A stretch of 64,000 nt of DNA, taken from contig CBDDEL010000016.1 of NCBI GenBank assembly GCA_965226885.1, forward strand, positions 416,001-480,000. Reading direction: 5' to 3'. Position numbers: made by a program. The DNA comes from Opitutales bacterium. Lineage in GTDB: Bacteria; Verrucomicrobiota; Verrucomicrobiia; Opitutales; UBA2987. The first letter of the stretch is position 1. The number at the start of each line of letters is the position of its first letter. Shown one piece after another: positions 37,101-40,100 of this stretch.

Positions 37101-40100
37101 ATTTGCCGCCCCATAGGTGCTGGCCTCTGGAGCCTCCCATTGGAAGTCACTGGAATCGGAGCCGACACCCGAAAGTTGCAACGAGTGACCAATGGGTGTT
37201 GCAGAACCCTCCTGCACACCGAGGTCGATACTTTCGATTCCCGCGGCTGGCCCATCGGCCGCTATGAAGGTTCCCTCATAACTGAAAAATTCGACCAACG
37301 AACCTGAAGAATCGACCAGGGCCAACCCGTCCGGCGATCCGTTTTGAATTGGGACTATGGCGAAGAACACCGCTCCGATCCCACTGTCTTCCTGGGGGAT
37401 TATCCCACTTAAGGGAACAGTCTTATAAACTTTCAGTTCGGATGCGGTGCCATTGTAAAGGGCAAGGCTCCAGCCTGTCAGGTCGGTTCCTGACGGCCCG
37501 GCGACCTCAATTCCCTCGTTGGCGTCCGCCCCGCTGTTATCATAGGTTATCATAGTGGATTTCATTGATAAAGACCGGGCCTGCAAAAGCCGATATGGCA
37601 ACAATCAATGTGGCCATCAACACTGTGGAAGTTTTAATCATTCTTATATTTGAGTTAAGAGCCATCCTGGGATCGCTTTGAGTATAAATACGCCCGAACC
37701 ATGCACCAAAGCCAGGTCACGCTCAAAACTTCAAGAATGCCTGTGAAGAGCGATTGAGGGTAAAGCAGCGTCAGGGCAAGGGGACCGGCGCACAAGCATC
37801 CCACAACTATTGCCAGGTTATTCCAACGCTCTGCTTTTGGGTTGCCCCGGAATCGATCAGTGAAAAAGTTAAGTCCGGAAAGCCGCATTCGATTCAGTAG
37901 AAACAAAATCAATTCCAATGGTCAAGCCTTATCGGGATAGCCTACCGGATAGCCTGCCGAAATGGGATTCAACACAATCCCCAAGCAACCCTTGCCGCCC
38001 GTTCACTCGCGGTTCTGAAATTTCAGGAGCCTTTTTGCATTGCAGCCATTTTGCGGAAGATACCTGGCCCATGAATTTGACGAAGCATTTTCCGCCGGAG
38101 GGCCACAGCCAGTTTAAAGGCTTTTTCCTCCCCATATTTGCGGATGGAGAAAGAAGTTGTTTTCAGTACTCCGGGGGAAGGGCTCCAACTGACTGAGTAA
38201 GCTTCGCTTATTTTCCCGGATGGGCTTTTCTTTGCCGTGCGGCAGACTCCCAACACTCCTGTAGTATTGCGGGGATTATGAGAAACGATCTTCCGACCCC
38301 AGGGTTTGGTGGGAATTTGGGCCAGCTTTTCGTGAAGTTCATCCCGATACTGACGGGCTTCTTTCTGCGCCTTCCTTTTGCCTCCACATTTCAGATCACT
38401 GAAAAGTTTGGGGTAGGTTTTCCCATTTTTGTACCCCCTCACGAACCATCCGTGGGTTGAGCCTGAATCAATGCGGGTGATTCCTTTGTTTTTTGGATCT
38501 TTCCTTTTTCTTTTAACCATAAGCCAAAGCCAAAAGCCTTACCAGTCTTTTTAAGCCTGCAAAAGCTCAGGCTTGTTCATTTTCCAGGCGGCAGCCCCAG
38601 CCAGCAGGGTCATCAATACGATCATGCCCCATTCATTCAGGGTTGGGATGGGCTGTGGCACAACGCCGGTAGCCCCTGCCAGGATGGGGGTGTCGGGCGT
38701 GTCTTCATATGCCCAGTCTATTATGCTAACCGAGGTGGCCATTCCAAAAAAAATTGCCAAATCATATTGAAAGCAAATATTTGGATCGAAATATTGGATA
38801 GTAGCTATTTTCAACGATAGTGAATGTTCATATGGTAAATCTCGGTTAAATTCTGTGGACTTTTTGTTTCCTGAGAGCTATACAGAGTTACTTTACTTTT
38901 TCTCCACAGAGTTACTTTACTTTTTCTCCATTGTGCAATTTTTAGTTCTCATGCGTCCGGAAATTACAGAAGAAAGCCATTGGTTCGCAGAAAACCTGCA
39001 GCCACATGAAGCCATGTTGCGGGCCTGGCTGCATAGTCGTTTTTCCAATGAGCACGATATAGACGATATCGTGCAGGAGGCATATTTCAAGGTCTTGAAA
39101 GCCCGAAAGACTACAAAGATCACTTCTCCCAAGGCTTTTCTTTTTGCCACTGCAAGAAATTTGGCTCTCGAAGGCATTAGAAAAAAATCGGTGCGCAGCG
39201 AACTTTCTTTGGTAGATTTGAACGAGTTTGACCTCTTGAATGATGAGGAGGACGTTAATGATGCCGTTGCTCGCTCCGAGGAACTTGAAATTTTGACCAG
39301 AGCCATACAGTCATTACCAACCCGTTGCCGCCAAATCATCACTTTGCGGAAGATATACGGCATGTCCCAAAAGGATATCGCCAAGGAACTTGGCATATCG
39401 GTGCATACGGTAGAAACTCAAGGAACTATAGGCATTCGGCATTCGCAAGCTCACAGAGTTTTTCGAGCGCTTGGAACGTCCAGCATACTAGCCCGGATAT
39501 TTCATGAAGGGTAAAGTTTGGCTCGTTATTGCTATTGGAGATGGATTTCTTTGTATTTTGAGCAGATCGTCTTGATTTTTAGGTGTTTTTCAGGGTGTAG
39601 AGACACTGCCCCCTTTCCCCCATTGGTTCGGTAGTGCCGGGGGCAGCACCAATGCACCCTTTAGGTTGGCACCAATCGGCGGGCCGCATGGTTGAAAAGA
39701 CTGGCCCAAGGATAACTCTCACTTAGGTGAAAGTGAATCGTTCGGGTGTTGCGCACGATGACCGCTCCGATCTTGATTAATTTGAGCCGCAGGGTGTGGC
39801 ATTGGGCCCGCGCCCACTTCGTCCCTTTTAAGGCTAACCGGCGCATGGCTTCCATCAAGGTGTAGGCCAGCGCCGACAAGAGCAATCGCCACTGATTGGC
39901 CCACCATTGATGGGCGCTGTGAAATGGACGGGGAAAACTGGACAGTGGAATAAGGTGGTCTTGAACCACTAAATCCGCTAACCTATGAATGTTATTAAAT
40001 CACGAAAGAGAAGACAATACAGTGCTGAGTTTAAAGCCCGAGTGGCCCTGGAAGCCATCAGGGGCGCTCATACCATCAACGAGATCGCCGGTCGTTTTGA

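Follow-up and report, generated by a model that had tools for sequence, protein, structure and literature searches.

Introduction

Insertion sequences (ISs) of the IS1380 family are elements of about 1.5-2 kb (the ISfinder range) with a single open reading frame (ORF), terminal inverted repeats whose ends start with CC, and a short target-site duplication of 4-5 bp. Two members of the family have been described, in the excerpted text of PMC9330008, as carrying complete outward promoters (in ISEcp1, TTGAAA-18-TACAAT) and as mobilising the DNA that adjoins their 3' end: ISEcp1, of which a remnant of ~200 bp retains its promoter before a gene, and ISPme1, which in Paracoccus gives rise to transposable modules (TMos) made up of 3'-adjacent DNA of variable length that is driven by a strong outward promoter. 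Here we analyse a window of 64,000 nucleotides from the genome of an Opitutales bacterium (assembly GCA_965226885.1, contig CBDDEL010000016.1, positions 416,001 to 480,000; the genome is G000 below), in which an earlier note had described a ~95-bp repeat as a mobile promoter-operator cassette placed before some 25-30 unrelated genes. We consider it probable, with good confidence, that these repeats are right-end relics of an IS1380-family element, named IS-A here, which mobilised the genes adjoining its 3' end and whose promoter-bearing end was kept after the remainder had decayed. The relics are a large but ordinary case of a known mechanism, that of a mobile element carrying along and switching on neighbouring genes.

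The repeat and its parent element

When window positions 38700-38960 are compared with their own genome (blastn, E<=1e-3), 52 matches are obtained, including the query itself, with the other copies showing 74.8-90.7% identity to the window copy. Every copy that retains the 3' part stops abruptly at ...GGGAAATCTCGG, and the DNA past this edge is unique in most of them. The repeat and its sharp 3' edge are thus real, and its two reported 5' subfamilies were recovered as forms with and without an extension of ~60 bp. Four identical copies are not independent insertions and lie inside a 7.4-kb unit bounded by ISNCY/IS5-like inverted repeats. Matches to IPTL-CTERM genes, searched with a DNA-level proxy query in the wrong reading frame, lie within 600 bp of 3 of the 52 copies.

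Judged by its sequence, the 95-bp repeat forms the final ~93 bp of a 1.7-kb IS1380-family IS (nt ~1608-1700), and comprises a subterminal 3' non-coding stretch and the 14-bp right terminal inverted repeat (IRR). In fuller copies the repeat is contiguous with a transposase gene: about 20 copies have the extended 5' form, with a PF13701 transposase ORF, nearly whole or fragmented, directly upstream on the same strand (E-values for the IS-A transposase ORFs 1e-102 to 1e-165), and the NCBIfam model NF033539 'IS1380 family transposase', with a cut-off of 180 bits, gives scores of 330.5, 334.9 and 415.9 bits. The reference copy in G000 measures 1700 bp, and no IS-A copy with an intact transposase reading frame was found in this genome; three intact copies of 1685 bp, each with a single 447-aa ORF, are found in G032, which belongs to another family of the same order. 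In an intact G032 copy, 12 of 14 positions agree between the reverse complement of the IRR, CCGAGATTTCCCAT, and the left end, CCCATATTTCCCAT; the repeats start with CC, and the transposase stop codon lies about 250 bp from the tip. IS-A therefore has the transposase type, the single ORF and size, and the CC-starting inverted repeats of the IS1380 family.

These results recast much of what the earlier note had claimed. The repeat had been collected as an intergenic sequence free of ISs and is itself part of one; nor is it a free-standing cassette, most of its copies being decay products of the IS. The statement that it has no terminal repeats holds for the 95 bp taken alone and fails for the whole, in which the tip is the IRR of a 1.7-kb IS with its left partner 1.6 kb upstream. 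That the element is mobile DNA was correctly recognised, and so was the lack of target duplications, none being seen when eight solo junctions, two mini-derivatives, the 7.4-kb composite and four full copies (from G032 and the same-genus genome G004) were inspected by eye. The four full copies share flanks in differing combinations, which suggests recombination. Literature on IS1380 in Verrucomicrobia, at the level of titles and abstract openings, and the papers listed on IS remnants with outward promoters, with ISfinder outside this scope, contained no description of IS-A.

The features of the window are collected in Table 1.

Table 1. Features in the window that bear on the IS-A relics and their neighbouring genes (window coordinates)
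Feature	Position	Strand	Basis or remark
Relocated aldo-keto reductase gene beside the relic, broken into two ORFs	30548..31525	-	Pfam Aldo_ket_red on distal ORF
Second IS-A right-end relic	31529..31623	-	IS-A nt 1607-1699
Third IS-A right-end relic, partial, more diverged	33332..33397	-	IS-A nt ~1635-1698
IS-A transposase gene, probable remnant of its 3' coding end	38730..38752	+	window copy read by eye
IS-A right-end relic (element of the earlier note)	38753..38845	+	blastn of the 1700-bp IS-A reference: C16:454753-454845 = IS-A nt 1608-1700, 88% identity
Candidate outward promoter, two overlapping sigma-70-like hexamer pairs	38754..38795	+	TTGCCA-16-AATATT, TTGAAA-17-AATATT
Right terminal inverted repeat (IRR)	38832..38845	+	here ATGGTAAATCTCGG; consensus ATGGGAAATCTCGG; abrupt edge of all copies
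Native 5' region of the ECF sigma gene, retained 3' of the IS tip	38846..38951	+	two G002 loci share upstream sequence only as far as the IS tip (TAAATTCTGTGGAC...)
24-bp direct repeat, two copies	38883-38930		inside the 5' region of the ECF sigma gene
ECF sigma factor gene	38952..39514	+	Pfam Sigma70_r2, r4_2, Sigma70_ECF

Distribution among genomes

The repeat had been called genus-specific, a view that has to be given up. Of 41 genomes searched, all four of the same genus contain the element, and G032, from another family, has 16 matches of up to 91% identity in addition to its three intact copies; G039 has one weak match, and the remaining 34 genomes of the 41 have none.

Decay and asymmetry of the two ends

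The genome holds 58 IS-A loci, with the right end present in 42, the left end in 16 and both in 9. Among small relics, those that retain the right end only outnumber those that retain the left end only by 28 to 3 (about nine times), and matches in the genome cover the interior of IS-A to a depth of 11-13, its left end to 16 and its last 50 bp to 47. In eight relics just 32-57 bp of the tip survive. Only four internally deleted copies retain part of the left end, and internally deleted derivatives with both ends are represented by C1_28439 (208 bp of IS-A) and C17_636995 (~95 bp). The short string that precedes the window relic also lies 5' of copy C12_221060, where blastn assigns it to IS-A nt 1323-1374; in the window it was probably fused to the relic by an internal deletion of about IS-A nt 1375-1593.

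The 5' ends of 15 relics of this genome cluster at IS-A nt 1596-1613, a pile-up that random deletion does not predict, and the sequences upstream of them are unrelated. Together with the two two-ended derivatives, this could point to a MITE-like mini-element, that is, to a unit of ~93-108 bp moved in trans by the IS-A transposase with the aid of the true right repeat and a weak internal mimic of the left end (CCAAG...). We hold this to be very improbable: MITEs are recognised by inverted repeats at two ends and target-site duplications, whereas the 95-bp copies lack a left repeat and showed no duplication at the eight junctions read by eye. In G032 and G004, moreover, the 5' ends of the relics are scattered from nt ~1440 to ~1675, with 3 of 33 in the 1596-1613 zone (coordinates converted), and three of the junctions are accounted for as slippage deletions by the short direct repeat CCAAG(R)AAA, present at nt ~1375, ~1525 and ~1593. 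The upstream flank of the aldo-keto reductase locus is not syntenic, so that this locus is not a clean insertion.

A second alternative is that the relics are neutral IS debris with no present function, the bias in their arrangement arising from target choice, from DNA capture or from deletions barred from entering the neighbouring gene, and not from a promoter. We regard this as rather unlikely. It is favoured by conservation over the last 160 bp of 25 long copies, which is flat (0.91-0.955), with no differential conservation as a sign of purifying selection on the promoter region; the excess of small right-end over left-end relics speaks against it.

Orientation towards neighbouring genes

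That the repeats face gene starts was borne out. By an automatic longest-ORF rule, the right ends of IS-A are followed by a co-oriented ORF at 38 of 43 distinct flanks and by an opposed one at 5 (binomial P 2.5e-7). A hand count of 42 distinct junctions found a co-oriented, Pfam-supported non-IS gene at 27, a co-oriented ORF without a family at 3, another IS at 11 and an unclear situation at 1; a convergent non-IS gene was found at none of the 42. Of 53 ORFs scanned on the opposite strand, 8 belong to a Pfam family, and all 8 are transposases. The co-oriented gene often has its start codon 0-20 nt from the tip; the third relic of the window has an Rce1-like CAAX protease ORF at +95. The pattern recurs in G032 and G004, where 33 of 37 right ends (those whose loci were fetched) have a co-oriented ORF; the 31 distinct ORFs scanned there comprise 22 with non-IS Pfam families, 3 transposases and 6 without a family.

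Left ends of IS-A, by comparison, give 9 co-oriented versus 4 opposed ORFs, and IS-B, a second IS1380 element with ~330 copies, is unbiased under the same rule (141 versus 125 at right ends and 123 versus 149 at left ends), the right ends of the two elements differing with P 8e-6 in a Fisher test. An ORF starts within 30 nt of the tip at 13 of 43 IS-A junctions versus 24 of 278 for IS-B. This contrast with a sister element speaks against neutral debris, as do genes with an ATG 1-9 nt past the tip, where neither a promoter nor a ribosome-binding site belonging to the gene could fit. Neutral debris gains in turn from the intact G032 copies, which already lie 22-38 nt before co-oriented ORFs, so that the bias predates decay, and from the broken state of at least one downstream gene, that for the aldo-keto reductase, which is present as two ORFs.

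Neighbouring genes as probable cargo

The genes that follow the relics look like cargo or accessory DNA joined to the 3' end of the IS. Six junctions were set against same-genus genomes, and in five of them the adjoining gene is accessory or relocated. The katG block is missing at the same site in G004, G003 and G002; the GFO-type oxidoreductase and RidA genes have no DNA match in any of the four same-genus genomes, in which the IS or flank parts of the queries did match; and the amino-acid permease is found in G003 only, where a segment of 92-95% identity carries it together with the relic. (These searches for absence were made at the DNA level, with thresholds of E<=1e-25 to 1e-30, against drafts of 81-93% completeness.) The aldo-keto reductase gene of the window, whose ATG stands 4 nt past the tip of the second relic, lies in three relatives 7-20 bp after the stop codon of another gene, and the alignment with G000 begins only at about the start codon; in G002 its two neighbours are genes that G000 has on contig C11, where a multi-copy IS separates them.

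The earlier idea of a cassette inserted before unrelated resident genes is thereby largely reversed, these five genes being absent, relocated or present only with the relic. The junction pattern fits capture of 3'-adjacent DNA of the ISEcp1/ISPme1 type. As to the far side of the cargo, no right-hand block boundary was confidently tied to an IRR-like sequence, that of the katG block bearing a weak resemblance to the IRR by eye, with left ends deleted. Searches for empty sites of copies C13_499255 and C13_483186 returned just weak, paralogous or IS matches, and no usable orthologous site.

The ECF sigma factor locus

The relic first described stands upstream of an ECF sigma factor gene whose reading frame is open from 38855, with a likely ATG at 38952, and whose 3' end meets an IS-B end at about 39493. 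Its homologues in G002 show 91% identity over window positions 38938-39493; after them comes a FecR-like reading frame, which G000 does not have at this place.

The candidate promoter and the palindrome

IS-A probably contains an outward promoter, as is suggested by analogy with the precedent of its family (PMC9330008, excerpted text) and by hexamers at two fixed positions. At least one match to the hexamer pairs occurs in 27 of 43 distinct right ends, clustered at -92 and -79 from the tip, as against 290 of 2150 shuffled right ends (13.5%), under a rule that is based on Escherichia coli and may not be the preference of the host phylum. Here, too, the evidence on neutral debris is divided: outward promoters have been shown experimentally in the family (PMC9330008, excerpted text), which argues against it, and five of the eight short relics lack both hexamer pairs, which argues for it, three of these five still preceding co-oriented ORFs.

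In the mechanism that we prefer, that of gene mobilisation by IS-A, the element would have inserted with its right end towards genes, and would have mobilised 3'-adjacent DNA as transposable modules in the manner of ISEcp1 and ISPme1. An outward promoter in the last ~90 bp, with candidate hexamers beginning about 92 and 79 nt before the tip, would read across the inverted repeat and on into the gene next to it. Most of the IS would then have decayed, and the promoter-bearing end would have been retained ('promoter fixation') because the gene depends on the promoter. A more far-reaching version, which we think quite unlikely, holds that the defunct IS1380 element captured some 25-30 chromosomal genes, that its shared 93-bp end acts as their common promoter and 5' leader, that the ECF sigma gene was cut off from its own promoter region and anti-sigma gene, and that the palindrome may be a shared operator.

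The palindrome in question, TATGAA-N2-TTCATA, is present in the consensus and imperfect in the window copy. It was central to the original proposal of an autonomous promoter-operator cassette that brought ~30 resident genes into one regulon through a protein that binds it, a proposal for which one could cite, besides the palindrome, promoter-like hexamers shared at fixed positions and the identity of one downstream gene, which encodes an ECF sigma factor and no longer has an anti-sigma gene beside it. We find it scarcely credible: the unit is the end of an IS, and the adjoining genes that were examined are for the most part not resident but accessory or relocated. The palindrome, moreover, lies inside the IRR-proximal 30 bp that align with the left end of the IS, and is more simply explained as transposase-end sequence; neither a regulator nor co-regulation was found.

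The absence of RNA structure, in turn, was confirmed: three Rfam matches are all far under the gathering score (the best has 18 bits versus 60), and with a fold z-score of -0.24 the sequence has no greater stability than shuffles. In assembled contigs of four metatranscriptome runs, 15-22% of sampled words were present and the ECF sigma gene was uncovered; one RNA contig of 109 nt stops at the IS tip, its other letters corresponding to tandem copies on contig C12.

Significance and comparison with known systems

What appeared to be a dispersed "regulatory cassette" is the end of an IS whose transposase gene has mostly decayed, and a tempting misreading is thus corrected; IS filters that rely on transposase genes overlook such ends. 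The relics also provide a natural, genome-wide example, outside the antibiotic context, of IS1380 behaviour known from resistance plasmids: the elements sit tip-to-start before genes, probably carry these along and leave a stub that would bear a promoter. Should the stub prove active, it would offer a compact and portable promoter with which to do genetics in a poorly tractable group, and the roughly 30 junctions would map accessory genes acquired by the IS-A route.

Correia elements, the MITEs of Neisseria, are short dispersed repeats beside genes that can supply promoters, and they are marked by target duplications and by an inverted repeat at each end. The IS-A relics resemble them as short dispersed gene-adjoining repeats and differ in that the 95-bp copies have neither two-ended inverted repeats nor target duplications.

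The nearest named relatives of IS-A are ISKpn23 and IS1247; across 54-76% of the transposase gene the nucleotide identity is 65-67%. On plasmid p60136, ISKpn23 has a co-oriented gene 242 bp after its transposase gene, comparable to the stop-to-tip distance in IS-A. The non-coding right ends of ISKpn23 and IS-A gave no meaningful alignment, and outside the transposase gene the resemblance is confined to the left-end repeat (ATATTTCC.AT).

With ISEcp1, IS-A shares the family, as defined by the transposase model, a single ORF directed towards the right end, a non-coding gap between stop codon and IRR, and co-oriented neighbour genes just past the IRR; TTGAAA, one of the candidate -35 hexamers, is also given for ISEcp1 (PMC9330008, excerpted text). 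The two differ in setting, the host of IS-A being an environmental Opitutales bacterium and its neighbours being metabolic and transport genes, not resistance genes. The TMos of ISPme1 (PMC9330008, excerpted text) have their counterpart in the katG, reductase, permease and RidA blocks that adjoin IS-A and are absent or moved in comparison with relatives, from which we infer module transposition by IS-A. Among the papers listed on solo or remnant ISs with outward-facing promoters, none was comparable. The closest likeness in outcome is the 'promoter fixation' described for the ISEcp1 remnant, in which most of the IS is deleted and the right end stays before a gene (PMC9330008, excerpted text); the known cases are single loci under antibiotic selection, whereas here there are 28 small right-end relics in one genome, and more in two others.

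Identity of the repeat

Searched by blastn (E<=1e-3) with the repeat region of the window, the genome of 17 contigs and 5.48 Mb gives 52 matches, which, excluding the query itself, are 74.8-90.7% identical. All copies in which the 3' part remains have the same final base (...GGGAAATCTCGG), the DNA past this edge being single-copy for most of them. These matches and the common end base establish that both the repeat and the sharp edge at its 3' end, as reported in the earlier note, are real. About 20 copies have an additional ~60 bp in common on the 5' side, and directly upstream of these extended copies, on the same strand, lie ORFs of Pfam family PF13701, some nearly whole (390-414 aa) and others fragmented; NCBIfam model NF033539 places the transposase in the IS1380 family at 330-416 bits (cut-off 180). 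When the long copies are aligned they form one continuous element, here IS-A, in which the transposase gene is followed by ~250 bp of non-coding DNA that ends at the sharp edge, the 95-bp repeat being nt ~1608-1700 of the 1700-bp reference copy. Three intact copies are present in G032, a genome from a different family of the same order, each of 1685 bp with a single 447-aa ORF (protein identity 92%); their ends, CCCATATTTCCCAT and reverse-complemented CCGAGATTTCCCAT, match at 12 of 14 positions, so that the right inverted repeat has its tip at the sharp 3' edge. The terminal repeat that had been declared absent was missed because its partner sits 1.6 kb away, at the left end of IS-A. IS-A belongs to the IS1380 family, as its transposase and size, the single ORF, and the CC-ended inverted repeats show; the closest named relatives in the plasmid collection are ISKpn23 and IS1247, which within the transposase gene reach 65-67% nucleotide identity. 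No target duplications were seen by eye at eight solo junctions, four full copies in relatives, two mini-derivatives, or the 7.4-kb composite described below. A reading of the 95-bp repeat as a MITE was rejected, since the 95-bp copies are without the left repeat and without duplications, as was a reading as an RNA element.

The element is present in 7 of the 41 genomes searched, including G032, where identity reaches 91-94%; this contradicts the proposed confinement to one genus and points to horizontal spread of IS-A. The flanks of the three intact G032 copies (L101, L102, L104) are common in differing combinations, one pair having the same left flank and a different pair the same right flank, a pattern that suggests recombination between IS-A copies or duplicated modules.

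State and decay of IS-A

An intact IS-A transposase frame was not found in the genome under study, the longest ORFs reaching 390-414 aa versus 447 aa in G032. The right end is kept in 42 of the 58 IS-A loci, the left end in 16, and both in 9; among small fragments (<=300 bp of IS-A), 28 have the right end only versus three the left end only. Genome matches stack to a depth of 47 over the final 50 bp of the element, against 16 at its left end and 11-13 in its interior. A few copies have lost internal sequence but retain both ends, namely C1_28439, C17_636995, C16_781803, and C15_103605. In C12_221060, and probably in the window copy as judged by eye, a small part of the 3' coding end of the transposase gene is fused to nt ~1600. 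C17_655756 is missing nt 1523-1598, and a short direct repeat, CCAAG(R)AAA, that recurs at nt ~1375, ~1525, and ~1593 borders the deletions in these three copies. Fifteen relics (fragments keeping the right end) start within nt 1596-1613 in this genome, and starts are dispersed in G032 and G004, the latter from the same genus; we would guess at a deletion hotspot at direct repeats beside a 15-bp palindrome.

Four identical copies had been described as belonging to one cargo IS. They lie inside a 7.4-kb unit bounded by ISNCY/IS5-like inverted repeats, which carries IS-A together with a TonB-dependent receptor gene and, in its C9 copy, an additional ~1.1 kb at about +4420. This four-copy set has TAG where TGG stands in other IS-A copies. 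On C12, four relic-preceded genes lie in ~13 kb, encoding asparagine synthase, 2-hydroxyacid dehydrogenase, aldehyde dehydrogenase, and a GHL10 protein, the second of them being preceded by tandem relics 124 bp apart.

Orientation towards genes

Duplicates were merged, the four copies within the 7.4-kb unit being scored as one, and the resulting 42 distinct junctions were classed by hand. Beyond the right end lies a co-oriented non-IS gene with Pfam support at 27 junctions (25 of which begin within 250 nt), a co-oriented ORF without a family at three, another IS at 11, and an unclear arrangement at one; a convergent non-IS gene was found at none of the 42. Within the first 800 nt, 53 opposite-strand ORFs reach at least 100 aa; eight of them have a Pfam family, and all eight are transposases. 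The control was IS-B, another element of the IS1380 family, 1567 bp long (ends CCCGGATATTTCG... and ...GAAATATCCGGG) with a 456-aa transposase and about 330 copies (327 right and 332 left ends counted in the whole genome), which makes up roughly 0.5 Mb of the 5.48-Mb genome, same-genus genomes measuring 3.4-4.3 Mb. Under an automatic rule that picks, for each distinct flank, the longest ORF reaching into its first 600 nt, co-oriented and opposed ORFs number 38 and 5 at IS-A right ends (binomial P 2.5e-7) and 9 and 4 at its left ends, versus 141 and 125 at IS-B right ends and 123 and 149 at IS-B left ends. IS-B has no orientation bias towards genes, and the counts and the comparison of right ends (Fisher test P 8e-6) thus make the bias specific to IS-A right ends, upholding the claim that copies point at downstream genes. 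ORFs also start close to the tip, within 30 nt at 13 of 43 IS-A junctions versus 24 of 278 for IS-B, with plausible start codons at +1, +1, +4, +6, +9, +13, +18, +20, +20, and +21 past it; the tip itself offers ATG codons that read outward in two frames (ATGAATGTTCATATGGG...), which is why several gene calls begin within the element. Among loci fetched from G032 and G004, a co-oriented ORF follows 33 of 37 IS-A right ends, and the 31 distinct ORFs scanned comprise 22 of ordinary Pfam families, three transposases, and six without a family.

Neighboring genes: resident or cargo

Six junctions were compared with four same-genus genomes (G001-G004) by DNA searches, which in drafts 81-93% complete may let diverged orthologues escape; on this comparison the neighbor is accessory or moved at five of the six. 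At the katG site the flanks are separated by 118 bp to about 870 bp in G004, G003, and G002, and here a relic, katG, and a 343-aa ORF (about 3.9 kb) stand between them; the 5' part of katG has no match in any of the four genomes (E<=1e-30). In G001-G003 the aldo-keto reductase gene lies 7-20 bp past the stop codon that ends a gyrA-like gene; here it is on C16, its ATG 4 nt from the tip of the second window copy, and the gyrA-like gene and its opposite-side neighbor are on C11, separated by a multi-copy IS. A GFO/IDH/MocA oxidoreductase with its ATG at +1 has no match in the four genomes (E<=1e-25), where the IS sequence of the query alone matched. The amino-acid permease recurs only in G003, as two contig-end pieces of 92-95% identity, one including 68 bp of relic, and all four genomes have its upstream flank (74-88%). 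RidA has no match in the four, and the gene after it, from about +857, is matched in all (69-83%).

The sixth locus is that of the ECF sigma factor gene, which begins ~100 bp beyond the window repeat. Its two homologues in G002 (91% identity) have upstream regions that align with this genome no further than the IS tip, and the FecR-like frame that follows the gene in G002 is replaced here by an IS-B end. The IS-A relic has cost the sigma gene its upstream region, and its FecR-like anti-sigma frame is gone too; if expressed, the sigma factor would have no partner at this locus. A 24-bp direct repeat, perfect in its two copies, lies between tip and sigma ATG, and neither G002 homologue shows this duplication within the aligned stretch. 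Upstream of the relic lie a 165-aa AP2-domain ORF (Pfam E 9e-7, under the gathering score) and a small ORF, which may be a truncated gene and whose C-terminus resembles, by eye, an IPTL-CTERM sorting signal; upstream ORFs elsewhere have PF18203 at two other copies and AP2 at one more.

Features of the IS-A loci (window positions unless a contig is named)
Feature	Position	Strand	Remarks
Repeat under study	38753-38851		AT-rich, 3' end ...CATATGGTAAATCTCGG
Second copy of repeat	31529-31623	minus	
Third copy of repeat	33332-33397	minus	
ECF sigma factor gene	38952-39514		IS-B end from about 39493
24-bp direct repeat, two copies	38883-38930		CAGAGTTACTTTACTTTTTCTCCA
AP2-domain ORF and small ORF	38023-38814	minus	Just upstream of relic, divergent
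IS-B, example	~39489-39700		
7.4-kb composite, four copies	C10:133218 region and three others (L004, L016, L036, L040)		ISNCY/IS5-like inverted repeats (TAGAGGCTGTCCCAAAA...)
Tandem IS-A relics	C12:57989-58205 (L024, L026)		

Candidate promoter and family precedent

Two fixed sites in the IS-A right end have sigma-70-like hexamer pairs, whose -35 begins at -92 or -79 relative to the tip, TTGAAA-17-AATATT being one candidate pair; such pairs are found in 27 of 43 distinct right ends versus 13.5% of shuffles. Eight relics retain just 32-57 bp of the tip, and five of these are without both candidate pairs. Conservation is flat (0.91-0.955) over the last 160 bp. The suggestion of an operator and a common regulon is unsupported, the palindrome lying within the stretch that aligns with the IS left end. 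Transcription would start ~45-55 nt inside the tip and exit through the inverted repeat, and to genes abutting the tip IS-A would additionally provide a leader; the surplus of right-end relics would reflect retention of the promoter-bearing end.

According to a review, the IS1380-family elements ISEcp1 and ISPme1 carry complete outward promoters (TTGAAA-18-TACAAT in ISEcp1) and mobilize 3'-adjacent DNA of variable length as transposable modules, and an ISEcp1 remnant of ~200 bp that retains the promoter can remain fixed before a gene (PMC9330008). IS-A has the same anatomy, with a transposase gene pointing to the right end, ~250 bp of non-coding DNA, and co-oriented genes immediately past the tip, and by this analogy it most likely operates like ISEcp1 and ISPme1, on a scale that is notable, with 28 solo right ends in this genome and more in two others.
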